Shown here: one piece after another, positions 18,632 through 59,815 of the stretch
Layout: every line of letters begins with the position of its first letter
Position numbering within the stretch: the first letter of the stretch is position 1
Source of the DNA: a virus
Lineage: Duplodnaviria; Heunggongvirae; Uroviricota; Caudoviricetes
Strand: one strand, 5' to 3'
DNA length: 64,000 bases
IMG/VR virus record: IMGVR_UViG_3300032245_000624
Notes under the pieces: generated by a model
The model's database searches: none
What the model was told of the DNA's origin: nothing
The model's input: the letters and a program-made list of their open reading frames with translations, nothing else
Position numbers and translations under genes: made by a program

Positions 18632-19189
18632 TCAACGTCCGGAGTAGATTCGACGATTTACGACTTCCCAATCAATGATTTTCCAGTGATTTTTGAGATA
18701 AGATTGCTTGTTCCATTTGTAGTCTAGTGCCCAGGCATGCTCCCACCAATCAATCAACAATGCAATGTCTTTTTTGATTGCGTGATTCTTGATTGTTTTG
18801 ATATCCCCTGATCGAGACAGATAAGCCCAACCTGAGCCCTGGATCTTCATGGCTTCTTCTTCAAATGCTTGCTGAAAATTTATATACGAACCAAACTTGC
18901 GATTGATCAAGTCTAAACTGGCACCATGCGGTGTATTTCCGCCAGCTGGTTTTTGTAATTGTGTGAAGTATATGTTATGCAAAAAAGCACCTGCTTCGTT
19001 GAAGTCGGGGTCGCCTTCGCCTGAATTAAAACGCTCTACATAGGTTTTATAAAGATGTCCGTAGTGATAGTCTACAGCATCTTTACTCAAACTAGGGGAC
19101 AGATCATCACGAGCATAGGGCAGTTTGGCCTGCTCAAGATTGTTTTTTGCTTTGCTTTCTACTAGATCAACTAGCTGTCGGAATTCCAT
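18632..19189 (-). CDS. Fe/Mn superoxide dismutase
   Basis: Motifs AVDYHYGHLYKTYV and DWWEHAWALDYK, and a length of about 185 aa, match Fe/Mn SODs. Confidence 0.85.
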   Translation of the reverse strand: MEFRQLVDLVESKAKNNLEQAKLPYARDDLSPSLSKDAVDYHYGHLYKTYVERFNSGEGDPDFNEAGAFLHNIYFTQLQKPAGGNTPHGASLDLINRKFGSYINFQQAFEEEAMKIQGSGWAYLSRSGDIKTIKNHAIKKDIALLIDWWEHAWALDYKWNKQSYLKNHWKIIDWEVVNRRIYSGR

Positions 19190-19193
19190 ACAG

Positions 19194-19415
19194 CTATTTA
19201 TTACGATATGTAATTCTGCCGCGGCTTAGATCATATGGGCTCATTTCCAACTCAACTGAGTCGCCCAACAAAACTTTGATGTTGTTCTGGCGCAGTTTGC
19301 CACCTAGATATGCTATTATTTTGTGCTCTGTTTCGTCGAGCACCACACGAAATGTGGCATTGGGTAGAACTTCTTCCACAACACCTTTCATTGTAATAAA
19401 ACCTTCTTTAGCCAC
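19194..19415 (-). CDS. infA: Translation initiation factor IF-1 homologue
   Basis: 73 aa. [28 protein letters not shown]...[21 protein letters not shown] aligns along its whole length with bacterial IF-1 (S1/OB fold). Confidence 0.85.
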
Positions 19416-19444
19416 AGTGGCATTTGTCCTTAAAAGTTATCCGT

Positions 19445-19825
19445 TTATCCACGGCGCATTTTACTTATGTCTTCAGCTTCTTGATTGCTGAACACAGGCA
19501 CCATGTTTGACTTGTGCATGGTGGCAATACCAACAATCTTGTCGCCGGTATAGACTTTGGGTGCAGACTTAGTGGCATTGCCTAGTCCACTGTCGCGACT
19601 GGGTATGTTGCGACTATTACGGTCTGCAGGAATGGATAATTGATAATCTAGCTTTTGCTTTCGAGGTGCAGGTGCAACTTTAGAAGGTCCGTACTTGGAC
19701 ATTAGAGCTTTCCAGCTTTCATCTAGCTCACGTGCTTTGGCCGCATGAGCTGCCGATGCAAACTTCTTCTTACCACGCTTTTTGCCAGTCAGACTTAAAC
19801 TAGGGTGTGCCAGGTGCATTGTCAT
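19445..19825 (-). CDS. Hypothetical basic protein (126 aa)
   Basis: ORF in the gene chain with a Lys/Arg-rich N-terminus. Confidence 0.45.
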   Translation of the reverse strand: MTMHLAHPSLSLTGKKRGKKKFASAAHAAKARELDESWKALMSKYGPSKVAPAPRKQKLDYQLSIPADRNSRNIPSRDSGLGNATKSAPKVYTGDKIVGIATMHKSNMVPVFSNQEAEDISKMRRG

Positions 19826-23748: not shown

Positions 23749-23951
23749 TTTAATTTAAACAACATAGCATGTTTGTCTTCCCGGAATTTAAACCAGGTGT
23801 TCCCAAACATACTATACACGCACCACACACCTTCCACATCGTCGATGGTGTGTTCCCACCCGCCGGGTCCTATATTCTCCCGACACCATTTAATCATTTC
23901 ATCTTGTTGATGATACTGACGTTTGTCAAATCCTACTTCTGTTCTTGCCAT
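23739..23951 (-). CDS. Paralogue family small protein 8 (ends AMLFKLKWA)
   Basis: Motifs IKWCRENIGPGGW and FKLKWA. Confidence 0.55.
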   Translation of the reverse strand: MARTEVGFDKRQYHQQDEMIKWCRENIGPGGWEHTIDDVEGVWCVYSMFGNTWFKFREDKHAMLFKLKWA

Positions 23952-24402
23952 TTTCTTCTCTATCGTGCATGGTTATTCCATCCAGGTGATCCAACTCATG
24001 TTGGTAACACACAGCGGCCATACCTTCTAGTTCTTCCTCGCGCCACTCGCCTTCGATTGTTTGATAACGTGCCCAGATTTTTCTTGGACGGTGTGTTTGC
24101 ACATATTCATCCGGAAAGCTCAAACAACCTTCTTGACACTCAAACAGTTGATCTGTGGTGGCATCGGAGAACTCTGGATTAAAACAAGTTCTAGCAATAC
24201 CATCTACATTTATCACAAACACTCGGCGACTGATTCCCACTTGTGGCGCAGCCAGCCCGATTGCACCTGCACGATCCATGAATTCGTGCATCATAGTGCT
24301 CAGGCGCATGAGTGGGCGAGCATCTTCAAACGTAACCAGCTTGGCTACATTTTTCAGCACTCGATGAGTGAGCTTGAGTTTATTAGGAATGATCATAGCC
24401 AT
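23926..24402 (-). CDS. def: Peptide deformylase
   Basis: Three PDF motifs are present: GIGLAAPQVG, EGCLSFP and HELDHL. Confidence 0.85.
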   Translation of the reverse strand: MAMIIPNKLKLTHRVLKNVAKLVTFEDARPLMRLSTMMHEFMDRAGAIGLAAPQVGISRRVFVINVDGIARTCFNPEFSDATTDQLFECQEGCLSFPDEYVQTHRPRKIWARYQTIEGEWREEELEGMAAVCYQHELDHLDGITMHDREENGKNRSRI

Positions 24403-31594: not shown

Positions 31595-32395
31595 TTATTT
31601 GCCATTTGTAGTCACAGTAGGAGTAACCACACCATTGATCACCAAGGTCTGCCCTTTGAACTCTGCAATAGCACGGGGCAATGCACGAACAGCGTCTGCT
31701 TCAGCTTCTGCTTTGAGCAAAGGAATTGCCATTGGGTTGGCCTGCATTGACTCATTGCGCTTCTTGGCAGTGGCCACTTTAACTTCTTCGGTCTTGAATT
31801 CGTTTTTAGCCTTAACCAATTCGTTAGCACTTTGCACAACACTGTCAGCCGGTTCAATGTTACGAATCAACACTTGGCTGATAATGATGGTGCCGTCTAG
31901 TTTTTCTTCTGCTAGTGTTTTGATCACTTGCTCTTTGATTTCAGTTTCCATGGCTTGACGAGCATCGCCCATTTCCAATGCTTCAAACTTACGTGCTGAC
32001 TTGTAGATAGCATTACGTGTGGCATTGAACACATAGTTGTACATCAAGTACACATCGCCATCATGTTTGGCGTGAAAACTCTTGTTCTTGGTGTTATAGA
32101 TCTCAGCCACTTGTGCCTGATTGATGTTGTAGGTAATCAAGGCATCAAAGTCTTTCATGGTGCTGTTGTCTTTGGCCAGCGGCGTCATGTTTTCAACTTT
32201 AACAGAGATCTCTTTGGTTGGGAATGTGATAACATCACCAATGATAGTTTGATTAAAACTACCAGGTAGCAGTTCATCGGTTTTGACCTGCTTGTCAAAG
32301 CCCACACGAAGTCCAACCTCACCTGTTTCAATACGAGTACAACCTGTAGCTAGAACAGCGGCGGCGAGAATAGACAGAGTAAAAATACGTTTCAT
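31595..32395 (-). CDS. SPFH/band-7 (prohibitin-like) domain lipoprotein
   Basis: Lipobox LATGC after the signal peptide. The GEVGLRVGF...SPFH-like region. Confidence 0.65.
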   Translation of the reverse strand: MKRIFTLSILAAAVLATGCTRIETGEVGLRVGFDKQVKTDELLPGSFNQTIIGDVITFPTKEISVKVENMTPLAKDNSTMKDFDALITYNINQAQVAEIYNTKNKSFHAKHDGDVYLMYNYVFNATRNAIYKSARKFEALEMGDARQAMETEIKEQVIKTLAEEKLDGTIIISQVLIRNIEPADSVVQSANELVKAKNEFKTEEVKVATAKKRNESMQANPMAIPLLKAEAEADAVRALPRAIAEFKGQTLVINGVVTPTVTTNGK

Positions 32396-46026: not shown

Positions 46027-46058
46027 TGTTGAGCTCCTGTTTGTTTAACTTAGCCTAT

Positions 46059-46087: not shown

Positions 46088-46099
46088 CCGTTTTTTGTC

Positions 46100-46145: not shown

Positions 46146-46174
46146 GCTTTTTTACAACAGTTGCTAAACTGCTG

Positions 46175-47251: not shown

Positions 47252-47308
47252 TTTACAACTTTCTGGGACTTCGTAGTCCCTTGCGGGGGCAATGCCCCCT
47301 GGATTTAA
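47252..47308 (-). other. Twin GC hairpins (GGGGGCAUUGCCCCC and GGGACUACGAAGUCCC) between rIIB and the AAA ATPase gene
   Basis: Two adjacent perfect inverted repeats with no U-tract. Possible processing or regulatory structure. Confidence 0.4.
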
Positions 47309-48154
47309 TTACTTGTTGTCAGCTTGTGCGGCCAATGCTGCCTTTACTGCGGCTTCCACAGCAACACGGATCAAGTCAGCAGTTGCGGTATCAGTTGCGG
47401 CTTCTACTTGCACAGGTGCAATAAAAGCCTCGTCCGGATGCACACCCAATTCACCAATAACTTCGTATCGGCAAGTGCGACCCTTCGTTGCGTTGTAGTC
47501 TGCAGGAATGCTTACAACATCTTTAGGATTGATCTTAAGGATCACTGTGCGGCTATCATGCCCACCAAAGTGATTCAAGTACTCCTTGGAGCAGAAGTGC
47601 AGGCCTGTGGAACATGTGTTATTCATGTTGTCATCCACTGCATTGCGTTCCATTTCCACCACAGTGCCAGGAGCATTGCTCATGGTACCTGAGTGGATAT
47701 CCAAGAAGTCAGCACGTACTTTCTTGTAGGCCAAAAAGTGACCATCTGGAGTCAAGGGCAGGTTGCCCTTTTCCAAGAAGCCGTAGAGTTCTTCAACTGC
47801 TCGCTTGGAGGGGTTCTGCATCAAGTTCTCCATGAACAAGATCAGTGGCTCAACTGGAAAGCCTTCTTGGTACATGTCAATCAAGCGAGCAGTGAGCACA
47901 CCTGACATTTCACGTTCTTTGTAGAACACCTTGGAGCCTTGCACAGCCACATGGCCTGCACCATAGCCGAGGATCTCTTTAGCAGGATCCACAACCTGTT
48001 TAACAGTATCCCAGTCATTGTCCTTGATAGCTTGTTTCAGCTTCTCATATCCAATGTGAGTGGATGTTACAGTATAGGGCTGGTTGTCAATGATAACAAC
48101 AATGTTCTTGCCCTGAATCAAATATGGAAATGCCATTTTAAGCCTCTTTGTCAA
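47309..48154 (-). CDS. rIIB: rIIB-like protein
   Basis: C-terminal half (NPSKRAV...TCSTGLHFCSKEY...KDVVSIPADYNATKGRTCRYEV) aligns with T4 rIIB. Confidence 0.85.
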   Translation of the reverse strand: MTKRLKMAFPYLIQGKNIVVIIDNQPYTVTSTHIGYEKLKQAIKDNDWDTVKQVVDPAKEILGYGAGHVAVQGSKVFYKEREMSGVLTARLIDMYQEGFPVEPLILFMENLMQNPSKRAVEELYGFLEKGNLPLTPDGHFLAYKKVRADFLDIHSGTMSNAPGTVVEMERNAVDDNMNNTCSTGLHFCSKEYLNHFGGHDSRTVILKINPKDVVSIPADYNATKGRTCRYEVIGELGVHPDEAFIAPVQVEAATDTATADLIRVAVEAAVKAALAAQADNK

Positions 48155-50315
48155 TCAAGTTGATGTACTGTGCTACTGCCAACGCATTGATGTCGTAGTC
48201 ACGCAAACTGCTCAAGAGTGGATAACGATTACGGATGGCAGTCATTTCACCTGTAATGTTTTGGACAACCGAGTCTACGTCAACTGGTGTTGCATAGTCA
48301 CGGCACAAACGTTCTAAACTGTGTTTCTCAACTTTGACATTTTCGATGCCTCTGAACTGAGTCAAAAACTTCGAGAATGGGCTGTTGCTGTCTACAAGTT
48401 TTACAATATCGCTATTGTAGCGGAAAACTTTATTCACGTCAAGCTGTTTCAGCGCACAATTACGCACAACGGACACATCCAATTTTGCCAAAACTGTGCG
48501 AATGTGATCTTGTACATTGATCCAGTTCTTCTGTGTCTTGATAAACTCGATATCCGATTTACGCACACCGTAGATTGTGATACCATGCAAACCAGGAATG
48601 CCTGACTCAGTAACCATGTCGCTGAACTGACGCAGGTTGTGAATTGAAACGCTGTCAGTGATAACTTCAAAACCTTTGAGTGGCAGGTAGTAGTAGGTTT
48701 CAGTGTCGTCAAAGCTGTCGGCCTTGCCTGCGTCCTTCCACACCAGCTCACGCTCTTTGTGATAGCCACCGTAACCACGACGTTGCAAGCTCATGATACT
48801 AACATTAGCACCCATACCAGTACCGGTGTTCTTGCGTTCTTTTTCAATCAAGTCGCTGGCCAACATGCGTTGGGCCGCAGGCGGTTCACGTAGTTCTGCA
48901 AAGAAGCCCAGCGTGTCCATAGCATGGCCCTTGGTAGCAGGACTTATCACATACACTGTGGTGCTATAACCTGCACCAGGCAATTTGCTACCTTTGCTTT
49001 CTGCATTGCGCCAGTGGTACTTGGCACGGCTCAATGCACCAACTCGGGTATTGTTGGTAATAAAAACATTCTGACCATTGATGTTGAATTCCCACACTTG
49101 TTCAAAGTTGGTGTGAGTCTTGTCGTACACACGGCCGGGCTTGACTTCTGAGCAGGTGGCCGCACTACGACCTTTGTTGAAGGCCAGGATCTCAATGTTA
49201 TAGCGAGAGGCCAAGTCTTTGAGATTGATCTTAAACGGCACTGAGTGCATGTAATTGCCGCGGCTGTTAGGGTCAATCAAATCAAAGCCAGTGTCTTTCA
49301 CATACTTGTGAGCGGCCTGATTCCACAGCATCTCATTGGCTTTCTTCTGCAGGAACTCTACCTTTTCCCAGTCATTGGTGATAGCGCCTGCTTCCATGCC
49401 CAGGTGTACTGCCAACTGTGCATTCAATGCCTCTAGCTTGGCACGAATGGCATTCACAGTCTGTGGAATATAGCTCAAGCCCTCGCGACTTGCTTGGAAG
49501 TCCAACTCGCCAATGTCAAAGTGCATCTCCAAGCCACAGCTCAACAAGTTGGCAAGTTCACCAATTTGGTCTTGGTTAGGCAAGTCAATTGGGTATGCAA
49601 TATTACCCATCACAGCACGACTAGAACGACCACCAGTGTAATGCACACCTGGAATGATGTTCTTGTCCTTGTACTCAACATCACGGAACTTGAACTCACC
49701 GTCACCGCCTGATACCACAGGACGCAGGGCAAAGTAGGTGTACACATGTCGAGCTTCTTCTTCAAACTTGTAGAAGTCGCCACGGCTGTCTACTGCAAAC
49801 TTGACTTCAACACCTGCGGGTTGATCAGTGGGTTCTGAGTGCATGAGCACAATGCTAGGCACGCCTTCGCCGTTGATGAAAGCAGAGTACACTCCACGCA
49901 CACCATCACGGATGGCAGTCACAGTAAAATTGTCTGTGTAACTGAAAGGTGACTTGGAACCCAAGCCCAGGGCACCAATGAACGCATTGGATTCTGTCTT
50001 GGTAGATTCAAAGTAAGTGGTGTAGATGCTTTGCACCTGTTCGTGAGTAAGGCCAGTGCCATAGTCACGGATGCTGAATGTAGGATCAATAGTGTTAGGC
50101 AAGTGTACATCAAACGGTGTTGCCTGCTTGCCTGCGGCAGTATGGCTGTCAACTGCATTGCAAGAAAGCTCGCGGATGATAGCGCGGATCTTGTTTGCGT
50201 ACAAGCCTGAGGAAAGAATGTTAAAGGCCTTAGCAGAATTGCGAATACGGAACTCGCCAATTTCGCCTACGTTAGACAGAACAGCTTCGTGGGCTGGTGC
50301 ATTGTTGATGATCAA
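48138..50315 (-). CDS. rIIA: rIIA-like protein with an N-terminal GHKL ATPase domain
   Basis: 725 aa. YANKIRAIIRELSCNAVDSH...GLGSKSPFSYTD matches the T4 rIIA N-terminus. Confidence 0.85.
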   Translation of the reverse strand: MIINNAPAHEAVLSNVGEIGEFRIRNSAKAFNILSSGLYANKIRAIIRELSCNAVDSHTAAGKQATPFDVHLPNTIDPTFSIRDYGTGLTHEQVQSIYTTYFESTKTESNAFIGALGLGSKSPFSYTDNFTVTAIRDGVRGVYSAFINGEGVPSIVLMHSEPTDQPAGVEVKFAVDSRGDFYKFEEEARHVYTYFALRPVVSGGDGEFKFRDVEYKDKNIIPGVHYTGGRSSRAVMGNIAYPIDLPNQDQIGELANLLSCGLEMHFDIGELDFQASREGLSYIPQTVNAIRAKLEALNAQLAVHLGMEAGAITNDWEKVEFLQKKANEMLWNQAAHKYVKDTGFDLIDPNSRGNYMHSVPFKINLKDLASRYNIEILAFNKGRSAATCSEVKPGRVYDKTHTNFEQVWEFNINGQNVFITNNTRVGALSRAKYHWRNAESKGSKLPGAGYSTTVYVISPATKGHAMDTLGFFAELREPPAAQRMLASDLIEKERKNTGTGMGANVSIMSLQRRGYGGYHKERELVWKDAGKADSFDDTETYYYLPLKGFEVITDSVSIHNLRQFSDMVTESGIPGLHGITIYGVRKSDIEFIKTQKNWINVQDHIRTVLAKLDVSVVRNCALKQLDVNKVFRYNSDIVKLVDSNSPFSKFLTQFRGIENVKVEKHSLERLCRDYATPVDVDSVVQNITGEMTAIRNRYPLLSSLRDYDINALAVAQYINLIDKEA

Positions 50316-50347
50316 TTCTAGCTCCTGTTTTTACTTACTAAGCCACT

Positions 50348-50376
50348 ATTATAGCGGTGTTGAACAAAACGGTCAA
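50348..50376 (-). promoter_or_regulatory. Promoter TTGACC-17-TATAAT for rIIA-rIIB, with AAAACGG/CCGTTTT arms directly flanking the -35
   Basis: Plus ggtcaa at 50371-50376 and attata at 50348-50353. Confidence 0.65.
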
Positions 50377-50382
50377 CCGTTT

Positions 50383-50784
50383 TTACACTTCCTGATTGTA
50401 TTCTTTACGCAACACTTCCAGGCATTGCTCTTTGGTACGTTTGGTCACAACAACCTTGCCGCCAAAGAAGCCCACGTACAGATTGCGGTGCTCCACAAAT
50501 TTTACTTCGCCATCAGCACCGGTATGCTTTTGACGCATAGGAGCCTTAACAACCACTTTTTTGGCCACTGTCTTTTTAACAGCAGGCTTGATGCCCAGCG
50601 GAGTCATACCTGCCAGTGCAGGCACTTGAGGTGTTGCAGGCTTTGCAGGAGGATTGTTGAAGCTGTGCTTCTTGTCGTATTTTGCAATCTGCTCTGGAGT
50701 GAAACCCCAAGTAGCAATCAGTCGCTTGGTTTCAGTGCCAGTGAGTGAATTCCAGTTGATGCAAGAGTCTGTCCAGTTTTTCAT
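50383..50784 (-). CDS. Hypothetical protein (133 aa)
   Basis: ORF after cassette copy C. Confidence 0.5.
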   Translation of the reverse strand: MKNWTDSCINWNSLTGTETKRLIATWGFTPEQIAKYDKKHSFNNPPAKPATPQVPALAGMTPLGIKPAVKKTVAKKVVVKAPMRQKHTGADGEVKFVEHRNLYVGFFGGKVVVTKRTKEQCLEVLRKEYNQEV

Positions 50785-50815
50785 TGCGAGCTCCTTTTTG
50801 TTTAACTTAGCCTAT

Positions 50816-50844
50816 AGTATAGCAAAAACGGGTATTTGGGTCAA
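50816..50844 (-). promoter_or_regulatory. Phage promoter cassette copy C
   Basis: Plus ggtcaa at 50839-50844 and agtata at 50816-50821, with conserved leader and RBS. Confidence 0.7.
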
Positions 50845-50861
50845 CCGTTTTTTTGTTGCTT

Positions 50862-51150
50862 TTATGCAACATTTTGAGCTTGCAAAAACTTTAATACTTT
50901 GGGTTGTATTTTTACAGCAACAGATTGGCTGTTATTTTGCACACGAAATTGCTCAATTTTTGCTTGCACTAGTGCTAGAGTAGTGCTTGGGTGGCAAGGA
51001 AGCTCCGAATAATACAGGGCTTTGTTTACAGGGCACGATTCAAAATTATGGGCACTTATGCGAATAGCAACGGGCGCATTTGAATAGGGAGTTGTTTTAA
51101 TACTAACATTTGCAAAGAGGCGATTGCTTGCTTTTGTAGTAAAATGCACG
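50862..51150 (-). CDS. Hypothetical protein (about 96 aa), probably starting at GTG 51150 rather than the listed ATG 51188, which lies inside the promoter
   Basis: The listed start overlaps the -10 of cassette F. GGAGC lies 5 nt upstream of the GTG. Confidence 0.4.
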
Positions 51151-51178
51151 TTGAGCTCCTTTTTGTTATTGAGCTCAT

Positions 51179-51207
51179 AGTATAGCAAAACGGGTGTTTT
51201 CGGTCAA
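51179..51207 (-). promoter_or_regulatory. Phage promoter cassette copy F (divergent leader)
   Basis: Plus ggtcaa at 51202-51207 and agtata at 51179-51184. Confidence 0.6.
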
Positions 51208-51210
51208 CCG

Positions 51211-51456
51211 TTAGAGATACCCGCGGTCGAAATTTGCGTGGATAGCATACCACTGGAAAAATATGGGTTCATATTCTGCCCAATTGCATACCGCCCATTC
51301 TTCTTCGCGTTCTACTTCCCACGGCCTGAGGCTGTTGCTCAGCAGGGCCATCACGAGCTTTTTGTTGTGCCGTGTGGCCTGGCCCTTGGCCGAGCTCTCC
51401 TTGCCATACATGCCAATCAATTGGCCTGATCCTTTTTTATAAACTACAAATCTCAT
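51211..51456 (-). CDS. Hypothetical protein (81 aa)
   Basis: ORF. Confidence 0.45.
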   Translation of the reverse strand: MRFVVYKKGSGQLIGMYGKESSAKGQATRHNKKLVMALLSNSLRPWEVEREEEWAVCNWAEYEPIFFQWYAIHANFDRGYL

Positions 51457-51852
51457 CTACCAACTCGAATTATAAAACACTTTCATGCCTTGTGTGAGCT
51501 CAGAGCGAGCCTGTTTAATAAAATCCAGATCCTGGGTCCGGTAATGGTCGTCTGAATCATTGCCAAAGAAAAAGCCTGTGGTTCCGGGCAGTTCCTTGCG
51601 CTTGACCACGTACTCTAGTCTATCCAGATCTTCAAAGGTCAACTCCAGCTCATCGCCATTAAAGTCACCAGTATGACCACGTTCATTCCAGAGCTTGTGC
51701 ATCCAGCCATGCAGGTTAGGATGCTTGCGCCAGTAGGCGATTTCACGAGGTTTTTCTACAGGACCCGAATCTGTTTTGTAGTCATAGCTTTCGTAGTAGT
51801 CTCTCATTTGGCCTTCTTTAGCGGCCACGTAAGCATACATGTCTAGTCCCAT
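51457..51852 (-). CDS. Hypothetical protein (131 aa)
   Basis: ORF. Confidence 0.5.
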   Translation of the reverse strand: MGLDMYAYVAAKEGQMRDYYESYDYKTDSGPVEKPREIAYWRKHPNLHGWMHKLWNERGHTGDFNGDELELTFEDLDRLEYVVKRKELPGTTGFFFGNDSDDHYRTQDLDFIKQARSELTQGMKVFYNSSW

Positions 51853-51854
51853 GT

Positions 51855-52139
51855 TTAATCTCCTGAATCAATTTGATAACTATCACCACAATGCACACAC
51901 TTGTAGTTGGTAAGACATCTACCAGCGTTGCTACTTTCATACACATGAACACAGGGCATACCACTGTAGTCTATGTTCACCACACCCTTAGGGCGACCGT
52001 ACATGTACTGGCCACCGCAGTTGCGGCATTCCAGTGTATCGGTATTTGCATCATATCCTGCCAGCACATTCTTGTACTGATTATCTCCAGCAGGCACACG
52101 CCCACTGCCACTGCATACAGGACACGTTCCTTTTTCCAT
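51855..52139 (-). CDS. Cys-rich zinc-ribbon protein (94 aa)
   Basis: CPVCSG...CRNCGG...CVHCG. Confidence 0.5.
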   Translation of the reverse strand: MEKGTCPVCSGSGRVPAGDNQYKNVLAGYDANTDTLECRNCGGQYMYGRPKGVVNIDYSGMPCVHVYESSNAGRCLTNYKCVHCGDSYQIDSGD

Positions 52140-52140
52140 C

Positions 52141-52356
52141 TTAACTCCTTACAACCAATCCAACAATATAAATCAACAAGAGCCCTGCATTGATTGTGAC
52201 CAGGCTCCATTCACGAATACGCACACTCCAAATCAAATACAACAGAGCACCACCATTCAACAACCAGATGTTCAGTGGATCAATCTGCAGGCTTGTACAA
52301 AGTGCGCCACTCAGCGTCACAGCACAGGCTATCCATTTCAGTATTGTATCAGTCAA
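52141..52356 (-). CDS. Small membrane protein (71 aa, 2 TM)
   Basis: Hydrophobic ORF. Confidence 0.45.
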   Translation of the reverse strand: MTDTILKWIACAVTLSGALCTSLQIDPLNIWLLNGGALLYLIWSVRIREWSLVTINAGLLLIYIVGLVVRS

Positions 52357-52439
52357 GGTGTACTCCTGACATCGGGCGTTTGCCCAGCCAGTGGTCTTTG
52401 GTGATACAAACCGATTGTGGAATCAGGTGCTCCTGTTTT

Positions 52440-52763
52440 CTAATTTCTCTTTTTGCGGCCACGCACACTGACTCGCTTGGCATCGGGACTGCTATTTTGT
52501 CCACGAACTGTCCTCTGCTTGTGGTGAGCATGATCAATAGTATCCAATCCATTATTAACTCCAAATTCTCGTTCTACATAAAATTTAACTAGACTACGCT
52601 GAATCATTGTAATCAAGTCACCGTGATCGTCTGCAACAACAAATCTCACAGGACAATGGCCCCAGGTCCGTGAATGCACAAACTCTGCATACCAACGTCT
52701 ATGGTCTTTGTTTCGTGGGTCAAATACCACCCACGGCCGGGCCAAGAATTCCAGTTGTGACAT
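52440..52763 (-). CDS. Hypothetical protein (107 aa) with a basic C-terminus
   Basis: ORF. The overlapping ORF 52349..52564 in another frame is judged less likely. Confidence 0.45.
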   Translation of the reverse strand: MSQLEFLARPWVVFDPRNKDHRRWYAEFVHSRTWGHCPVRFVVADDHGDLITMIQRSLVKFYVEREFGVNNGLDTIDHAHHKQRTVRGQNSSPDAKRVSVRGRKKRN

Positions 52764-52765
52764 AA

Positions 52766-52886
52766 TCTATACGATCTCCCAGGTAATTGCAGTAGGGTGC
52801 ATTGCCTTGCGATTCTGCCAGTAAGGCAATGCCCAGGTTAAATCGGTTTCAACCACAATCAGTCGCTTGTTGAAGTAGACTTTCAT
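52766..52886 (-). CDS. Unlisted small ORF (39 aa, MKVYFNKRLIVVETDLTWALPYWQNRK...)
   Basis: ATGA overlap with the upstream stop at 52883-52886. Confidence 0.3.
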
Positions 52887-53077
52887 GACAACTCCAATTC
52901 CAGTTCTTTGTCAAGTTCACCCAACATGTCATGTAGGCTTTCTACAAATTGTGGCAAGTTGACATCGGTAGGTTCGTAGAATGTACGGAACTTGAGAATT
53001 TCTTTTTCCAGTGCCAGCGCCGCGGACACCAGCTGATTGTATTGTGCATCAATCATTTCTTGCTTCTCTTTCATCAT
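52883..53077 (-). CDS. Hypothetical protein (64 aa)
   Basis: ORF. Confidence 0.45.
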   Translation of the reverse strand: MMKEKQEMIDAQYNQLVSAALALEKEILKFRTFYEPTDVNLPQFVESLHDMLGELDKELELELS

Positions 53078-53334
53078 ACTGCCTCCGCTGTTTTAGGAAA
53101 ACGACTGGTTGCTTCACTGTACCCATCACAAGAGAACTTGCTAGAACCAAATTGGTTGATCACATGCACAAGAATGTCATCATAAGCGGCCCACTCAATG
53201 CACTCTTTGCGAGCTGTTTGAAAGTTGTTGGTAGTCAACAACACTTGTCGACCCAAGAAGTCAACATCTGCATCTTCCTTGGAAGACACCTCAGTGACCA
53301 CTCGGTATTTGTAAGGCATGTTACCGTATCTCAT
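53074..53334 (-). CDS. Hypothetical protein (86 aa)
   Basis: ORF. Confidence 0.45.
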   Translation of the reverse strand: MRYGNMPYKYRVVTEVSSKEDADVDFLGRQVLLTTNNFQTARKECIEWAAYDDILVHVINQFGSSKFSCDGYSEATSRFPKTAEAV

Positions 53335-53615
53335 TATGCAGACTCCAACATGTTAGCAGGCACCTTCCACAGACCCTGCTGAGTGGCCACTGTGACATAC
53401 TTGATAGCAACCTTGCTCACGGTACCAGTCATTGTCACACCACGCTTGGTGCTGTGGAACTTGACCGCATCACCTTTGGTGAACGCACGGATCTTGGTTG
53501 CACGAAGCTGGGCACGAGCATAGTTCACGGCATCGCTGATGCTATTCAGTTGCTCGTTGGTAAAGTTGCTGAACATGATTGAAGTGTTAACTTCTTGAAT
53601 GGTTGCGTATGACAT
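53334..53615 (-). CDS. Hypothetical protein (93 aa)
   Basis: ORF after cassette copy D. Confidence 0.5.
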   Translation of the reverse strand: MSYATIQEVNTSIMFSNFTNEQLNSISDAVNYARAQLRATKIRAFTKGDAVKFHSTKRGVTMTGTVSKVAIKYVTVATQQGLWKVPANMLESA

Positions 53616-53645
53616 GATGTGCTCCTTTTGTTTAACTTAGCCTAT

Positions 53646-53674
53646 AGTATAGCAAAACGGGAATTTCTGGTCAA
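53646..53674 (-). promoter_or_regulatory. Phage promoter cassette copy D
   Basis: Plus ggtcaa at 53669-53674 and agtata at 53646-53651. Confidence 0.7.
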
Positions 53675-53680
53675 CCGTTT

Positions 53681-53947
53681 TTATTCGGAAAATTCGTACA
53701 TGAATTGGACCGTGCTAGGATCCAACTTGATCAGATCACGGGCGGCGCCAGTCAGCGCACGATAGCGAGCTTGTACTTGACTACGAGGCAATTCACCATC
53801 ACAGCTCAAGTTCTCTGGGCTGAGTGCGGCATCAATGCTCTGTGCCACACGTTTGCGACCCTGGGCAGTTTTAACTTCAAACTGCTCGCCCTTGAAGATT
53901 GCGTTCCATTTGTTCTGTTGTTCAATGTATGCTTGAAGTGCTTTCAT
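53681..53947 (-). CDS. Hypothetical protein (88 aa)
   Basis: ORF after cassette copy E. Confidence 0.5.
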   Translation of the reverse strand: MKALQAYIEQQNKWNAIFKGEQFEVKTAQGRKRVAQSIDAALSPENLSCDGELPRSQVQARYRALTGAARDLIKLDPSTVQFMYEFSE

Positions 53948-53977
53948 TGCTGGCTCCTTTTGTTTAACTTAGCCTCT

Positions 53978-54006
53978 AGTATAGCAAAACGGGTAGATTT
54001 GGTCAA
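53978..54006 (-). promoter_or_regulatory. Phage promoter cassette copy E
   Basis: Plus ggtcaa at 54001-54006 and agtata at 53978-53983. Confidence 0.7.
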
Positions 54007-54032
54007 CCGTTTTGTTTGTTGCGAAAAACCCA

Positions 54033-54065
54033 CAAAAAACCCCTGTAAAAACAAGGGTTTAAAAG
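54033..54065 (-). terminator. Rho-independent terminator upstream of promoter E
   Basis: aaaaacccctgtaaaaacaagggttt hairpin plus U-tract. Confidence 0.55.
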
Positions 54066-54088
54066 TAGTACTTTTGTTAACAAAAATG

Positions 54089-55531
54089 CTATTTTTTAGA
54101 TCTGCCGGATTTCATGTTAGCACACCAGTGGTACATTTTTGCCCGTTCTCCACTGGCACGTTTGGCCTTGGCTCTGAGTGATGTTACGGATCCGTCACAG
54201 CTGGCGCCTGCACGGCTTACTCTGCCCGGACGACTCTTGCCTTTGACCTTGCCGTCATGGAAGTTTTCCCACACACGCTCTTCTTCACCGCGGTGCTTGT
54301 CCCAGAAGCCTTTGCCTGCATCTGTTTGATCCCAACTACGATGTATCTCATAGCCCAGTTTCTTAACAAAGTCGTACATGGTACGAGCAATGCCTTGCCC
54401 TTGGTACTTGTCATCCACACGCAGATCCTGTGGGTCTAGTTCTTTACCATCACCGATGTTGAATTCAACGTAGCCTAGTACTTTGTTACCCCAGTCGTTT
54501 AGTGCTTCAACCTTGAGCTTGTATGATTCTTTGCTTACTCGTATGTTCAGCCCTTCAAACTCAACCATCTTGGATTCTGCCAAGCCTCGTCCTAGTCTGC
54601 TTAGTTCGTATATAACTATGTCACCATTGTCGGCACGGAAGGCTCGATATCCCCAAGCACGAGCATAACGCTGTACCAGTCTGTCGTACAGTTTAGCACG
54701 GCTTTCTGGATTGAAGTGTTCAACATTGTCTGCGTCCATGTCCACTTGTTTGCTGGCCGAGAAACTTAGTCGTTGTGGTTTGTATTTTTTGATGTATTTT
54801 TGTATAGCATCTAGTACTGTAGCAAAAATACGCTGTGCATCGCCCTCGCCTGTGACTTCTTGACTGTTGTTTCTATGGAACTCAACTTGCGTGACTTCTT
54901 CGCCTTCGTCACCATACTCCTGATTAAACATGATGTTGAGGTATGTGCCGTCTGGTAATTTTGCGTTTACATCAACGTCACCGTAGTCTGATTTTTCCCA
55001 CTTGCCCTTGTAAGGGTTGTCAAAGGCTTCTGCTAGTTCTTCATCATCTAAAAATGTATCTGCAAATGATTTGCACAGATCACGTATGCTACCATTTTCA
55101 GTTTCCATGATGTTGAAGTCACGATGTTCTTCTTCTTGAGTAGGATCAATATAACCACAGTAGACTTTCTTTACGCCCACTTGGTCAATTAGTTCTGTAC
55201 AGTCAATACCAAAACGTTCGCTCATGTGTTCACTGCATGGACTACATGTTGTGATAATAATACTGCCCTCAGGTATATCGCCATGTGCCTCTTGGTACTT
55301 TTCAATAGCCACACGCTCGGCATGCTTGCGAGTGTCTGTGGCATCATCAAATGTGTTTAGTCCTGCTATAATGCGATTGTCAGGGTCTACCACTGCCGCG
55401 GCCACCATGCCATAAAGTCCTTCACGAGGATCTTTCATGCCTTGCACAACCATGTGACACAACCGAACTAGAATTCGATCTAGTTTTTTATAGTTGTGTA
55501 TCTCTGTGTTGCTGATGTCGCTGTAGCGCAT
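54089..55531 (-). CDS. Fusion protein: N-terminal cytidine/dCMP-deaminase-like zinc domain and C-terminal GNAT acetyltransferase-like domain
   Basis: HAERVAIEKY...TTCSPCSEHM (H-A-E ... PCxxC). C-terminal DKYQGQGIARTMYDFVKKLGY (GNAT motif A). Confidence 0.65.
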   Translation of the reverse strand: MRYSDISNTEIHNYKKLDRILVRLCHMVVQGMKDPREGLYGMVAAAVVDPDNRIIAGLNTFDDATDTRKHAERVAIEKYQEAHGDIPEGSIIITTCSPCSEHMSERFGIDCTELIDQVGVKKVYCGYIDPTQEEEHRDFNIMETENGSIRDLCKSFADTFLDDEELAEAFDNPYKGKWEKSDYGDVDVNAKLPDGTYLNIMFNQEYGDEGEEVTQVEFHRNNSQEVTGEGDAQRIFATVLDAIQKYIKKYKPQRLSFSASKQVDMDADNVEHFNPESRAKLYDRLVQRYARAWGYRAFRADNGDIVIYELSRLGRGLAESKMVEFEGLNIRVSKESYKLKVEALNDWGNKVLGYVEFNIGDGKELDPQDLRVDDKYQGQGIARTMYDFVKKLGYEIHRSWDQTDAGKGFWDKHRGEEERVWENFHDGKVKGKSRPGRVSRAGASCDGSVTSLRAKAKRASGERAKMYHWCANMKSGRSKK

Positions 55532-55532
55532 A

Positions 55533-57458
55533 TTAGTGGAACATTAAAAACTGTCTGCTCACGTCCAAGCGACTTGCGCCTAGATCGCCGTGGCCTGCAG
55601 GGAACACTACCACGTTCCACTTGGGCTTAGGACCTTCTGGAATACGCAACATCTGATCATAAGTGATAATAGTGTCTGGATCAATCTTGTATGCAGAAGC
55701 CAACTTTTGCTTGAACTGATTCCAGTCGTCTTCGCTCTTGACCTGTGTGCGACCTTTTTCATCTTTTACATACTTGCCTTTGGCATCTGTAACAAACAAT
55801 TCACGGAACATGTCTTTAGGCAATGTAACTGCATCTTTAACATGCTTGCCAGCACCACGTTGGAATTCAACTTTTTTGACTTCGCGGTTCTGAGAACCAC
55901 TGGAGAACTGTCCAACTACATTAGGCGGAGCACCTGCATCGGCAGCAAGGTCACCCATCTTGGTATAGAAGTAGAACTTGGCGCCTGGGTTGTTGCGAGC
56001 AACATTCATGGCTAGGTCATAATAGTCCTTGCTGAAGAAATCGCCTGCATCGTGAATACGAACTAGTAGTTTAATGCCTGCTTTGTCTGTGCGTTTTTGT
56101 GCTGCCTTGACCTCACGATCAAACATTGCCATATAGCCTTCTGGATCATTGACCAAGAAGTTCAGTGCCTGTGCCGCGCTCATTGAGCTGGCAGGGAACA
56201 TACGATATCCGCCCTTGCGAGCATAACAGAATATTTGGCATTCGCCTGCGCCCGGGCAGGTCTTGATTTCCACAAAGTCGCCTGTTTCTTCATCCACCAC
56301 AATGCCTGAAAGTGCTGGTAGCGTTAAATCGTACGTCATCGCACCTTCTTCTTTGCTCTTGGCCATTTTAGCGTTGGTGCCAAGAATTTGACTAGGGCGA
56401 GTTGTGATCTGTCTTGCTAGGTCATCCAGGTCCCACTTGTTGTTTGGGTCGTCGCTTTGTATGATTGCCTTGACGTTACTACCATGGATAATAGGCTTGA
56501 ATTTGTCTGATTTGGTCTTTGTGTCTGTTTGGATACGGTCAACATAGCTGTGTAGTTCGTCACGGCTCCACTTCTGTTGTGGTGCATCAAGTTTTAATGC
56601 TTCATCAACTTCTAGGCTTTCATTGGGCACACAGTTACGTACCTGTCCGCCATTCTTGCCCTTTTTAGTGCCTTCTGCGTGTTTGCCTGGCCAGCACTTG
56701 GTATAACCGTTGCTGTCCTTTTGTCCTTTTTTGATTTCATTGAGATTGCCGTGTGATTGGCACATGCCACAATCCGGGCAAGTCATTTCCATCTCAATGC
56801 TTTTGTTGTGTTTTTTCTTGCCAGCACAATGTGCCTTTTGTGAGAATCCTTTTGGATGTGAGCAGTTGATACTTTTCTTGTACTTCTGACTCCACTCTTC
56901 TGCTATTGGCTCGTCATCCACTGTGCCAATATAGTGATGGTCATGTACTTTGTAACCCTTGCGGCGATAGTGTGCAATGGCTTGGTTAATGGCTGCTTCA
57001 CGATTAGAAACGTTTTGTGTGATACGAATTGATTTCTGAATAGTTTCTTTGCGCTTGCTGACCATTGGGTGGTTTGGATCTGTTACTGTCACACCAATGC
57101 GGTGTGTAACCGGCCCCACAGACTCGTCGACACCAACTCCAAATGCTTCTGGTGGGTTTTCCTTTAGCATACGTTCCACTTGGTTAACCCATCCACTAAC
57201 ATCGCTGGAGCCAATTTCTTCTACATCGCCAACCCAGTCAGCAACATCATCAATTGCGGCCATAACTGCTTCTGGACCATACTTGAGTAGGTCATGACGC
57301 TGGCCCATGATGCGACGAGTAATAGCACTGGCTACTGGACTGGGTTCTCCAAATCCTTCAGCAACAGGATCTTTGCTTCCAGACTGTTCAATATCTAGAG
57401 GCTGGACTGCAAATCCGCCTAGCGTCTTGCCTTCTTTAATTAGTTCGGTGTATCTCAT
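55533..57458 (-). CDS. Large hypothetical protein (641 aa) with Cys/His clusters
   Basis: Long ORF with no family recognised by eye. Confidence 0.55.
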   Translation of the reverse strand: MRYTELIKEGKTLGGFAVQPLDIEQSGSKDPVAEGFGEPSPVASAITRRIMGQRHDLLKYGPEAVMAAIDDVADWVGDVEEIGSSDVSGWVNQVERMLKENPPEAFGVGVDESVGPVTHRIGVTVTDPNHPMVSKRKETIQKSIRITQNVSNREAAINQAIAHYRRKGYKVHDHHYIGTVDDEPIAEEWSQKYKKSINCSHPKGFSQKAHCAGKKKHNKSIEMEMTCPDCGMCQSHGNLNEIKKGQKDSNGYTKCWPGKHAEGTKKGKNGGQVRNCVPNESLEVDEALKLDAPQQKWSRDELHSYVDRIQTDTKTKSDKFKPIIHGSNVKAIIQSDDPNNKWDLDDLARQITTRPSQILGTNAKMAKSKEEGAMTYDLTLPALSGIVVDEETGDFVEIKTCPGAGECQIFCYARKGGYRMFPASSMSAAQALNFLVNDPEGYMAMFDREVKAAQKRTDKAGIKLLVRIHDAGDFFSKDYYDLAMNVARNNPGAKFYFYTKMGDLAADAGAPPNVVGQFSSGSQNREVKKVEFQRGAGKHVKDAVTLPKDMFRELFVTDAKGKYVKDEKGRTQVKSEDDWNQFKQKLASAYKIDPDTIITYDQMLRIPEGPKPKWNVVVFPAGHGDLGASRLDVSRQFLMFH

Positions 57459-57835
57459 TCTATAATCTCCGGGTATTCTTTTCCATATAGTTTCATTAGG
57501 TAACCTGCTTCTGCATCTGCTTCACGTTCTAGTTTACTGCCAGGAGGACTATGTCCATGAATGCGACCTTGGGTGCCTTGCTTGACGTGCTTTAGTTCAT
57601 GCGCCACTGTGCGTAGTATATCAATTAGATTTCTATTGCCAGTGTACACATACATGGTATTCTCTTGATGATTGAACCAACCAGTATGGTGCATGTCTTC
57701 TGTTTCTTTTTCAGAACTAAAAGTGATTGTGGGCAACGGACCACGAATGTTTTCTTTTTGGTATACCCATTCAATGAAATGAGCTATCCTGTCTTCGTGG
57801 TTGTTGGGGGCATTGATAATTTCTTCTATTAACAT
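57455..57835 (-). CDS. Hypothetical protein with an HExxH motif (possible small metallopeptidase)
   Basis: TVAHELKHVKQG. Confidence 0.4.
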   Translation of the reverse strand: MLIEEIINAPNNHEDRIAHFIEWVYQKENIRGPLPTITFSSEKETEDMHHTGWFNHQENTMYVYTGNRNLIDILRTVAHELKHVKQGTQGRIHGHSPPGSKLEREADAEAGYLMKLYGKEYPEIIE

Positions 57836-59124
57836 TATTGCCCCTGTTGATTTTGTGAAAGCTGTTTTAGTGCATCTCTAAGACCATCTATTACCACATT
57901 CAAACTGTCTTCATCTGCTTGGTATTTAATGCCAATGCCGCCTTTGGATCTCCAGCTCACAATGTTGGTTCCACGATCGTCAATCAGGATGTTTGGAGTA
58001 CCGTCAGGCTGAGTGGCGTGTTTTTCTTTTCGTGACGTAATGATAATGTCGCGTGGTTGAATACTGAGATTCTGTTGCAACCAGATACGTTTGTGTTCTT
58101 CGCTGTTTGCATGATCACCACGCAGTGGACTTGAGCAGATATTGTAGTGACCAAATAATTTTGTCACTGTGCTTACCAGTGCATCTGTGGTGGGAAACTT
58201 TGGCAAGCGAGAAAAGAAATCTGTTCCTATCATACGATTCAATGTAGGATCAGTCTTGGCAGAAGGAATATTTCTATAATTGTAGCGGCCACTACCATCT
58301 GGTGGAACACCTGCTAGCTTGGCGTACTCTGAGAAGAAGTCGCACAGCACACCGTCCATGTCTAAAAAGATTTCTGGTTTGCTTTTGTTTTCTGGAGGTG
58401 ATGGTAAGCCAGGAGTGTCATCATCTTCGTCTATGCTGAGGTCTCTGTCAGTTAACCCTGTTAGGTGTATACGAATCTTGTCAAGATAACCTTGGGCACG
58501 TAGCAGTTTAAATGCTAGATTCTCAGGACTAAATTCGCCTGCTGTTTCTAGCCCTGTTTTACGCATGGCCTTGACATCGCTCCACACAGCAGTTGCACGA
58601 TCAAGATCTTGACTTATGATTGCTTGATCAATTCTATGCTTCATGTTACTGTACTTTTCACGCACATCCATGTCATCAATGTCTGCACGTTGGCGCTTGG
58701 GCTTGCTTACCCAACGGTCTTCTTTGACACTGTAGATACCCATGCTGTGATGTGCTTGCTCAACGTCCTGGACATAAAGCTCAACATCAAAACCACGCAC
58801 CTTGATATCATGTGTGTCATTGTACTGATACTTTTTGGCATCAAACAGCTGACGTAATTCATCCTCGTGTGCATCAGGAATCATAACCACAAGATGTAGA
58901 TCAATGTCACTGCTGGGTGTATAAGTGTAAGCGGCATTGCTACCCGAAATAGTAATATCCACTAGATCGTAGTTGTCAATGCCCAGAAATTCTTTGAAGT
59001 GATCTGCAATACGCAACAATGCGCGGCGCACTTCTGTTTGCAGACGCTCGTTTTTCCAAAGAGCTGGGTTTAGCTCATCGTGAAACTGTACCGCCTGACT
59101 TAGTTCAAATTCGTTTAATCGCAT
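57835..59124 (-). CDS. Fusion protein: Pol-beta-like nucleotidyltransferase domain plus HAD-family 5'(3')-deoxyribonucleotidase/phosphatase domain
   Basis: GSNAAYTYTPSSDIDLHLVV (NTase G-S...D-x-D) and IFLDMDGVLCDF (HAD DxDGxL). Confidence 0.6.
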   Translation of the reverse strand: MRLNEFELSQAVQFHDELNPALWKNERLQTEVRRALLRIADHFKEFLGIDNYDLVDITISGSNAAYTYTPSSDIDLHLVVMIPDAHEDELRQLFDAKKYQYNDTHDIKVRGFDVELYVQDVEQAHHSMGIYSVKEDRWVSKPKRQRADIDDMDVREKYSNMKHRIDQAIISQDLDRATAVWSDVKAMRKTGLETAGEFSPENLAFKLLRAQGYLDKIRIHLTGLTDRDLSIDEDDDTPGLPSPPENKSKPEIFLDMDGVLCDFFSEYAKLAGVPPDGSGRYNYRNIPSAKTDPTLNRMIGTDFFSRLPKFPTTDALVSTVTKLFGHYNICSSPLRGDHANSEEHKRIWLQQNLSIQPRDIIITSRKEKHATQPDGTPNILIDDRGTNIVSWRSKGGIGIKYQADEDSLNVVIDGLRDALKQLSQNQQGQ

Positions 59125-59224
59125 GTCTGCATCCTGATCAAGTATTTATTGCAAGGTGCAAATGCGGGTACAGTTAGAGATTGCCGGGCTATGAACCCGG
59201 CAATTCCATTGATATCAATGCTGA

Positions 59225-59815
59225 TCAGCGTTTGTCAACCACTGAATCTGCTAGACCGTACGCCACTGCTTCTTGTGCGCTCATGAAAAAGTCGCGTTCC
59301 ATGTCTGGTGCAATTTCATCAAAGGTACGACCCACACTGTTGTGTTTAACATAAACATCTGTTAGATTGCGCTTCATTTTAAGGATTTCACGCACCTGGA
59401 TTTCCATGTCTGTGGCTTGGCCACCAGCACCGCCTGATGGTTGGTGAATCATATGTCGTGCATTGGGTAATATTAGCCGTTTACCCGGTGCACCTGCTTG
59501 TGCTAGTAAACTGCCCATGGAGCAGGCTTGACCCATAACAATGGTACTTACATCAGGTTTAATAAACTGCATGGTATCGTAGATTGCCATTCCAGCGGTA
59601 ACAACACCGCCAGGAGAATTGATGTAGAACAGGATGTCTGCATCTGGGTTTTCGCTTTCTAAAAATAGCAGTTGCGCTACCACAAGGCTGGCACTATGCT
59701 CGTTGACGTCTGTGTCTAAAAGTACAATACGATCTTTGAGCAAGCGGCTATAGATATCATAGGCTCGCTCGCCGTGTGAAGTTTTTTCTAGTACTGTGGG
59801 TACAAAATTTGGCAT
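59225..59815 (-). CDS. clpP: ATP-dependent Clp protease proteolytic subunit
   Basis: Full-length similarity. [10 protein letters not shown] (Ser nucleophile) and MIHQP (His). Confidence 0.9.

Follow-up and report, generated by a model that had tools for sequence, protein, structure and literature searches.

Extended, peptide-conserved tags in two-piece tmRNAs of large phages and their association with clpP

Translation initiation factor IF-1 (infA), peptide deformylase (PDF; def), transfer-messenger RNA (tmRNA; ssrA) and the protease subunit ClpP (clpP) have each been published in large phages, and as a gene set they are of an already known kind. Here we describe a 64,000-nucleotide stretch of a large T4-like phage (IMG/VR record IMGVR_UViG_3300032245_000624; the whole stretch is called the window below), which carries the four genes in its early-gene region and whose tmRNA encodes an unusually long tag. 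A preliminary description of this DNA had placed infA, def, ssrA and clpP on one phage region, with ssrA at 44.3–44.7 kb, and all four were recovered intact at those positions by ARAGORN, Rfam and Pfam, the tmRNA gene being of the two-piece (circularly permuted) type. The beginning of the range that it assigned to the set has to be given up, since 18632-19189 encodes an Fe/Mn superoxide dismutase (Pfam). The interest of the case lies in the tag family, not in the four-gene list.

Among the closest described systems, OM43 phage Melnitz and the pelagimyophages (PMC9004378) resemble the window in being T4-like aquatic myoviruses with a complete permuted ssrA and an early-type promoter, and no phage smpB is reported for them. 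The proposed roles of the Melnitz-type tmRNA are ribosome maintenance or tagging for amino-acid recycling (PMC9004378). However, Melnitz has a tmRNA of alphaproteobacterial type with a glutamine riboswitch, while that of the window is of the betaproteobacterial type (RF01850) and Rfam detected no riboswitch in the window. Neither tags of 28–35 amino acids (aa) with a VKV...GFRFG motif nor a linkage with clpP and groESL is described in that account. For the huge phages (Al-Shayeb et al. 2020, PMC7162821), IF-1, PDF and tmRNA are read as taking over or sustaining host translation. These phages often carry SmpB, in contrast to the window, where none was seen; ClpP is outside their published translation set, and neither the extended tag family nor an island of clpP, ORF110 (an open reading frame, ORF, of about 110 aa), tmRNA and groESL is reported for them.

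Other systems share single parts with the window. Homologues of ClpP, IF-1 (55% identity) and PDF (43%) occur together in Sinorhizobium phage Phosso. A short-form PDF in a T4-like aquatic phage is also known from cyanophages (Frank et al. 2013, as cited in PMC7162821), and the best phage matches of the window PDF include S-CAM7 and S-SSM7 (36–38% identity). Unlike the cyanophages, the window phage probably has a host other than a cyanobacterium, because its tmRNA is of the beta type and no photosynthesis genes are found in the window. As for the tag, the tmRNA database holds only 79 phage sequences and the commonest tag length is 10 aa (PMC11915505), and ssrA tags commonly end in LAA (PMC9382460). 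In Mollicutes, e.g. Mesoplasma florum, tags are far longer than the usual 10–11 aa and end in ...AFA, as in the window, and the tag sequence can switch the protease (PMC9382460). However, Mollicutes are without ClpXP whereas the phage adds ClpP, the tag bodies are dissimilar, and other phage tags of the family end in VAA, LAA or ALA.

The extended tag and its family

The preliminary description had noted an altered tag that ends in AFA instead of LAA. The AFA end was confirmed, but the bigger departure from a canonical ssrA degron (about 10 aa with an LAA end) is the length, 32 codons against the usual 10, together with a conserved internal motif. The window tag is composed of three parts: a start of AN/AK type, a module G[TA]VKVxxx[KR]GFRFG and an apolar end, AAFA. 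A related locus (L026) contains a permuted tmRNA 850 bp downstream of clpP with the tag AEKTSKFETVKVSMGKGFRFGSADRAVALA, which has VKV...KGFRFG in common with the window tag, written in other synonymous codons.

A back-translated VKV...GFRFG motif was used as probe against viral contigs, metagenomes and 185,579 species genomes. Twelve viral contigs were matched, and the 11 not cut at the contig end are all permuted tmRNAs according to Rfam. The metagenomes yielded 70 contigs, about 66 of which contain a tag of the window family. Only three matches came from the species genomes; two are chance matches in long ORFs, and the remaining one, a real tag identical to that of the window, lies on a contig of 2 kb that was assigned to a metagenome-assembled genome (MAG). 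The family (53 distinct peptides of 28–35 aa) is found on viral or metagenomic contigs only. Its consensus is A[KN]x[ST]..G[TA]-V-K-V-x-x-x-[KR]-G-F-R-F-G-[GS].., followed by an apolar end, which is AFA in 18 tags, VAA in 11, ALA in 7, ALV in 4, LAA in 3 and VAV in 3. Phenylalanine is the most frequent penultimate residue (22 of 53), and the subclade of the window ends in AAFA. Given the many apolar endings, the C-terminus looks like an ordinary apolar degron and the internal module is the unusual part.

Because the probe itself forces the motif, tmRNAs were sampled again independently of the tag with the RNA element 3' of it, CGGGGTAG-N3-8-ACCTTGTNACC. This gave at least 120 viral loci, 88 of them with a permuted tmRNA called by ARAGORN; all figures from this sample hold among the matches listed. 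The tag lengths are bimodal: 20 of 47 distinct tags are 9–14 aa long, 27 are 23–33 aa long, and none falls between. Short tags are canonical (ANENFALAA, ANDEVFALAA, ANDNYAPEMALAA), and the long ones form discrete families, namely the window type, ANADTFDFTAMSFTGNTV...ALAA, ANASTFEYFTVEGFTADNGLVAA and AKSAFKFYEVDVAVNDSKFALAA. Several long tags finish in a complete canonical-looking tag, such as ...RGAANESKFALAA and, in L088, ...SKAANDSSVLLAA, so that the extension looks like a module inserted before an ordinary degron. The resume context GUAAAU|GCA is common to the relatives and precedes short and long tags alike.

In the same sample, the core of window-type tags reads V-[KT]-V-x3-[KR]-[GN]-F-R-F-[GA]. 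The third codon position varies at 10 of its 12 codons, but the residues V, V, F, R and F never change. For example, one related locus (L093) encodes a 32-aa tag identical to that of the window with eight nucleotide differences, all of them synonymous and including an AGC-to-TCC serine switch, although about half of the positions differ in the ungapped flanks (31 of 60 and 49 of 81 bases). Judged from this codon pattern, the core module is under selection at the level of the peptide, which implies that the tag frame is translated. RNA pairing was considered as a cause of the conservation and rejected, since the window and L026 have no conserved complementary segment and the wobble positions vary freely.

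The tag peptide had no match in GenBank phages (tblastn, E up to 10), and tag motifs of the VKV...GFRFG type were not found in the literature searched. Compared with that literature and with GenBank phages, the extended, peptide-conserved tag family in phage two-piece tmRNAs is new, and the window is a typical member. The tag resembles the GroES mobile loop and the ClpX IGF loop in composition only, and this resemblance was not used as evidence.

The tmRNA gene itself is complete (Table 1). It matches the RF04321 tmRNA_permuted model over its full length (positions 1–213) with 112.1 bits (gathering score 47; E = 4.7e-21). It passes the RF01850 beta_tmRNA model marginally, with 86.5 bits against a gathering score of 84 and a 102-nt insertion at the extended tag; the tmRNA of L026 reaches 127.3 bits against this model. 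The permuted order was confirmed, the piece with the T-arm and the CCA-ending acceptor being upstream of the piece with the 5' acceptor strand and the coding region. The acceptor stem consists of 7 bp (GGGGGUG/CACCUCC) with a G.U as its third pair, followed by the discriminator A and CCA. The G3.U (G3.U70) pair is the alanine identity element of tmRNA and tRNA-Ala. As far as sequence can tell, all features needed for alanine charging and trans-translation are present in the gene. Its partner SmpB was found neither in the window (tblastn with E. coli SmpB, best E = 5) nor in any fetched locus.

Some tmRNA genes contain or adjoin further elements. Inside the intervening sequence of the window, a Shine-Dalgarno-like TAAGGAGAT and an ATG open a hydrophobic ORF of 22 codons, MKAYEFICIVSLITVICIHVFL (44549-44617, minus strand). 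Small ORFs preceded by such a site are found in 4 of 25 distinct intervening sequences (the window, L253, L267 and L270); they are mutually unrelated, and none occurs in the nearest relatives. In three loci (L210, 3983-4492; L234; L260), a 133-aa HNH endonuclease ORF interrupts the tmRNA gene, so that the tag stop is separated from the conserved 3' RNA element by 509 nt, compared with the usual ~13 nt; this may represent invasion by a homing endonuclease. Directly downstream of the tmRNA, two loci carry tRNA genes with a CTA anticodon (L082, 4585-4661, and L088, 1039-1113, both minus strand), of amber-suppressor type and called tRNA-Pyl by ARAGORN, which Rfam confirms as tRNAs.

ClpP and the neighbourhood of the tmRNA gene

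ClpP of the window, a member of peptidase family S14, is a canonical proteolytic subunit. Over the full length, 62% of its residues are identical to those of E. coli ClpP, which in mature form has the same length, and the catalytic triad S99, H124 and D175 is invariant in the alignment (Ser in CSMG, His in MIHQP, Asp in ERDFF). In the ClpX-docking pocket, the residues Y62, F82, I90, M92 and L114 match those of E. coli ClpP, and Leu stands in place of Y60 and F112. In contrast to E. coli ClpP, the window protein is phage-encoded, starts at about the mature N-terminus and thus has no propeptide, and belongs to a large viral clade without an adjoining ATPase except in L069. Its viral relatives number more than 600 IMG/VR stretches, the best 80 being 76–90% identical, and true homologues occur in the jumbo phages Phosso (69.5%), Atu_ph07 (63.7%) and PA5oct (52%). 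The homologue of Agrobacterium phage Atu_ph07 (NC_042013.1, 463653-464231; 64% identical) is named head maturation protease in RefSeq and ATP-dependent Clp protease proteolytic subunit in GenBank; for this clade, our comparison speaks for the name used by GenBank.

ClpP of this family forms a tetradecamer to which ClpX or ClpA docks. Since the window encodes no partner ATPase, its canonical ClpP must use host ClpX or ClpA. The related locus L069, which belongs to the same lineage, carries a homologue of clpX (45% identity to E. coli ClpX) 5 kb from clpP. The window does encode a 358-aa AAA ATPase (46175-47251, minus strand; phrog_2376), which adjoins rIIB and rIIA. As a substitute for ClpX it was rejected, because it belongs to the classic clade (weak similarity to p97 D2, Msp1 and YjoB, E = 7e-8) and has no Clp signature; it may be a protein remodeller. 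On one side clpP is flanked by an SprT-like metalloprotease gene (59867-60406, minus strand), which adjoins clpP in 10 related loci as well, and on the other side by a gene for a 429-aa protein with an NT5C 5'-nucleotidase domain (57835-59124, minus strand).

To summarize the neighbourhood, the ORFs of 204 tmRNA-bearing loci, which are only 5–20 kb long, were clustered. In the tag-independent sample, clpP (>50% identity) is located in the same locus as a window-type tmRNA in 6 of 14 cases and in none of the 105 other loci, among the matches listed. Where it accompanies a window-type tmRNA, clpP is always upstream and on the same strand, at a median distance of 3.2 kb. ORF110 is located directly upstream of the tmRNA on the same strand in 60 loci, 58 of which are of the window tag type; the window has it too (Table 1), and its predicted fold is a small alpha/beta domain whose basic tail is disordered. 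The genes groES (32 loci) and groEL (20 loci) follow immediately downstream of the tmRNA, again on the same strand, almost only with the window tag type and confirmed by Pfam in L026; neither gene is present in the window or in about 18 kb of its flanks. The ancestral order was likely clpP, ORF110, tmRNA, groES, groEL, loosened later by cassette insertions. This placement of the tag family in a clpP-tmRNA-groESL island is also new compared with the searched literature and GenBank phages, and the arrangement suggests a portable phage proteostasis island. The link of the tag type with clpP and groES-groEL in relatives lends genomic support to the idea of a tmRNA that works with a ClpP of its own.

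Possible fates of tagged proteins

We judge it somewhat probable that the phage tmRNA tag and the phage ClpP form a coupled system of ribosome rescue and degradation. In such a system, infA, def, the tmRNA gene and clpP would be transcribed early by host RNA polymerase. Host RNase P would process the tmRNA and host AlaRS (alanyl-tRNA synthetase) would charge it, with host EF-Tu and SmpB as presumed partners. During infection, the tmRNA would then rescue ribosomes that have stalled on broken mRNAs or on mRNAs without a stop codon, appending alanine and 32 residues to the unfinished product. With its apolar C-terminus as degron, the tag could direct these products to a Clp protease whose proteolytic part is phage ClpP, with or without an admixture of host ClpP, and whose unfoldase is host ClpX or ClpA. 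Degradation of the tagged products would free ribosomes and amino acids for phage synthesis, while IF-1 and PDF may sustain initiation and N-terminal processing under the high translation load of infection. The preliminary description went further and suggested that tmRNA and ClpP reroute ribosome rescue and proteolysis; the quality-control set stands, but the rerouting is conjectural, ClpP being canonical and no partner ATPase being present in the window.

The conserved module could serve as an additional recognition element (tether or adaptor site) ahead of the C-terminal degron and would set phage-tagged proteins apart as a separately handled class. Recognition by ClpX in two parts, an N-domain tether and a terminal signal, has precedents in the XB peptide of SspB (RGGRPALRVVK), in lambda O and in FtsZ (PMC3983244). 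In its most specific form, VKVxxx[KR]GFRFG would be a built-in tether of beta-strand type for the N-domain of an unfoldase, for an adaptor, for ClpP or for the phage GroEL, so that a two-part tag leads proteins into a phage-controlled route (e.g. phage ClpP with host ClpX) apart from the host ssrA/SspB route. We offer this as a speculative proposal that is rather unlikely to be right. If it were true, the other extended families (FDFTAMSFTGNTV, FEYFTVEGF, FKFYEVDV) would be parallel solutions, and phages would have re-engineered the trans-translation tag repeatedly.

Several observations weigh against a coupling of the tag with ClpP. No ClpX or ClpA is encoded in the window or in about 18 kb of its flanks, and SmpB is missing there as well, so every step leans on host factors. 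The association between clpP and the tag type (Fisher p = 9e-7) ignores phylogeny and possible duplicate contigs. The distance between clpP and the tmRNA ranges from 0.85 kb in L026 to 14.5 kb in the window, and seen from the clpP side, only a few of the 80 related loci have a tmRNA or ORF110 within 10 kb; the association may thus reflect common descent in one phage lineage, i.e. inherited synteny. No partner of the module emerged. ORF110 provides no functional lead: its 555 homologues are hypothetical, and it has no family and no structural match. Outside the core, the tag evolves nearly freely (ratio of nonsynonymous to synonymous polymorphism, pN/pS, 0.5–0.9), and we therefore claim conservation for the core alone. 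An AlphaFold2 (AF2) model of the 32-aa tag by itself is uninformative, without secondary structure and with a predicted local distance difference test score (pLDDT) of 66, and a beta-hairpin may be suspected solely from the alternating hydrophobic pattern. Finally, a long tag ending in AFA can bypass ClpXP, as the tags of Mollicutes, which end in NYAFA, go to Lon (PMC9382460). It is plausible that tag and ClpP are functionally coupled, but shared ancestry could explain the linkage as well.

A less probable but serious alternative is that the four are independent auxiliary genes, captured from hosts and each topping up a limiting function in slow-growing aquatic hosts, with the gene order as inherited synteny and the long tag as tolerated variation before an ordinary apolar degron. 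Each gene has indeed been met separately: huge phages are known to carry IF-1, PDF, tmRNA and SmpB (PMC7162821), aquatic phages have two-piece tmRNAs (PMC9004378), clpP is among the auxiliary genes of a freshwater phage (PMC5964084), and true ClpP occurs in Phosso, Atu_ph07 and PA5oct. The highly variable spacing of clpP and tmRNA, the distances of 4 to 20 kb between the four genes in the window and the weak constraint outside the core fit this explanation too. It does not account well for a core that is strictly conserved as peptide across 53 tags despite heavy synonymous change, which is unexpected for a neutral spacer, nor for bimodal tag lengths with several distinct conserved insert families, nor for clpP and groESL being neighbours of the window tag type only (in the tag-independent sample). 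It is improbable, in our view, that the tag serves rescue without degradation by ClpXP, the AFA end handing products to Lon, FtsH, Tsp or the phage GroEL, or leaving them stable, while the phage ClpP serves other substrates such as host regulators or defence proteins. The long NYAFA tags of Mollicutes, recognised by Lon and largely escaping E. coli proteases (PMC9382460), are in line with such a fate, as are the AAFA end of the window subclade, the prevalence of a penultimate F and the groES-groEL genes directly downstream of the tmRNA in relatives. However, other tags of the family end in VAA, LAA, ALA or VAV, which resemble the LAA, LVA and AAV endings listed for targeted ClpXP-dependent degradation (PMC9382460); L088 has a near-canonical ANDxxxLLAA tail, and the loci in which clpP adjoins the tmRNA end in, e.g., ALA, VAA and VAV.

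The last explanation, that ClpP is a prohead maturation protease and the tmRNA a host fragment from an integration site or assembly contamination, is in our opinion effectively refuted by the sequence evidence. It was raised by the PHROGs assignment of ClpP-like proteins to head maturation protease (phrog_94, 163 bits), which the RefSeq label of the Atu_ph07 homologue repeats, and by tmRNA genes being common integration sites of prophages (PMC9004378, PMC11915505). Prohead proteases of the ClpP-like type belong to the head-assembly module, beside portal, scaffold or major capsid genes, are often fused to the scaffold and resemble cellular ClpP only distantly. But the close identity to E. coli ClpP, the lack of a scaffold fusion, a place among early-type genes about 40 kb from the structural genes (at 1.6–18.5 kb) and a perfect sigma-70 promoter all speak against a prohead protease. 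As for the tmRNA, the gene is complete, including promoter and terminator, and lies between phage genes; among the 185,579 species genomes, its tag type occurs only on the MAG-binned contig, and a Pfam scan of 70 window ORFs gave no integrase.

Published ideas on the role of phage-encoded tmRNAs are speculative, and the conserved 12-residue module offers a concrete experimental handle (peptide bait, reporter tag, point mutations). It could reveal whether phages merely boost ribosome rescue or build a degradation channel of their own. As orthogonal degrons, extended tags of new specificity might also find use in synthetic biology.

Features and further genes of the window

The window is phage DNA: among its products are a tail protein, rIIA, rIIB and a structural protein of the virion (phrog_5838, E = 5e-191). 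Its closest cultured relatives at the protein level are the T4-like cyanomyoviruses S-CAM3 and S-CAM1 (about 40% amino-acid identity), and GenBank phages show no near-identical DNA, only short matches to the T-arm of the tmRNA. The sequence is part of a metagenomic contig of 99 kb, so that the phage genome is at least this long, and contigs of relatives reach 371 kb. Nearly all genes of the window are on the minus strand, including infA, def, the tmRNA gene and clpP, which belong to one co-directional region of early type and each have a sigma-70-like promoter upstream.

Table 1. Coordinates of the tmRNA gene, clpP, infA, def and associated elements in the window
Feature	Coordinates	Strand	Details
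infA-like IF-1, 73 aa	19194-19415	-	PF01176, 74.9 bits against a cut-off of 30.2, residues 7-71 of 73; phrog_30201
infA-unit promoter	19887-19859	-	TTGACA-17-TAAACT, 10/12, at the head of the infA unit
Peptide deformylase (def), 158 aa, short form	23926-24402	-	PF01327, 128.9 bits; phrog_2890 (peptide deformylase)
def-unit promoter	24616-24587	-	TTGACA-18-TGnTATAAT, perfect extended -10; upstream of a 62-aa ORF, then def
Two-piece permuted tmRNA	44251-44722	-	ARAGORN tmRNA*, Rfam; the sole RNA gene called by ARAGORN in the window
Intrinsic-terminator-like hairpin	44294-44275	-	8-bp stem with 5 GC pairs, then T run CTTTTTGCAC; ends the tmRNA gene
Tag frame	44440-44342	-	Resume codon GCA, 32 codons, stop UAA; encodes AKANTQTGVKVTVAKGFRFGGSKVAATEAAFA
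Coding piece	starts at 44547	-	Starts GGGGGUG, then UGGUUUCGAC; resume context GUAAAU|GCA
Intervening sequence, 82 nt	44629-44548	-	Between the CCA end and the coding piece
Acceptor piece	~44691 to encoded CCA at 44630	-	T-arm GGGUUCGACUCCC, 3' strand CACCUCC, then ACCA
tmRNA promoter	44729-44701	-	TTGACG-17-TATACT, 10/12 consensus matches; the promoter-like 5' part of the Rfam beta_tmRNA model aligns here
ORF110, 109 aa	44996-45325	-	Conserved upstream neighbour of window-type tmRNA
clpP, canonical ClpP proteolytic subunit, 196 aa	59225-59815	-	PF00574, 264.6 bits, profile positions 2-181 of 182
clpP promoter	59870-59842	-	TTGACA-17-TATAAT, perfect (12/12), directly upstream of clpP

On the minus strand of 44000-62000, 38 sigma-70-like sites were counted, compared with 25.5 +/- 5 in shuffled sequences; for 18.5–26 kb, the count is 12 against 13 in shuffles. 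A recurring form of early promoter, TTGACC-17-TG-TATACT, is found on the minus strand at 54006, 53674, 51207, 50844 and 46087, and perfect consensus promoters are located on the same strand at 59870, 24616 and 22266.

IF-1 homologues are located within 10 kb of clpP in 24 of the 80 related viral loci, and IF-1 thus recurs in the lineage. No PDF was seen in the fetched loci of relatives. The motifs of the window PDF are AIGLAAPQ (the first Gly of G-x-G-x-A-A-x-Q being replaced by Ala), EGCLS and HELDH. That IF-1 and PDF support translation has been proposed before, for huge phages and cyanophages (PMC7162821), and is not a new idea.

Besides the superoxide dismutase at 18632-19189, the oxidative-stress genes of the window comprise those for a CMD/AhpD-like protein and an AhpC/TSA peroxiredoxin (38611-39117 and 39117-39656), all on the minus strand, and homologues of AhpC and AhpD are repeatedly found close to tmRNAs of several tag types. 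A further gene (31595-32395, minus strand) encodes an SPFH/Band 7 protein (PF01145, 63 bits). Cellular SPFH proteins (HflK, HflC) modulate the FtsH protease, and the phage protein may be part of the proteostasis theme. Outside the window, the right flank of the 99-kb contig carries an unusual auxiliary set, consisting of a CHASE2-guanylate/adenylate cyclase, an S11 D-Ala-D-Ala carboxypeptidase-like protein and a UvdE endonuclease.

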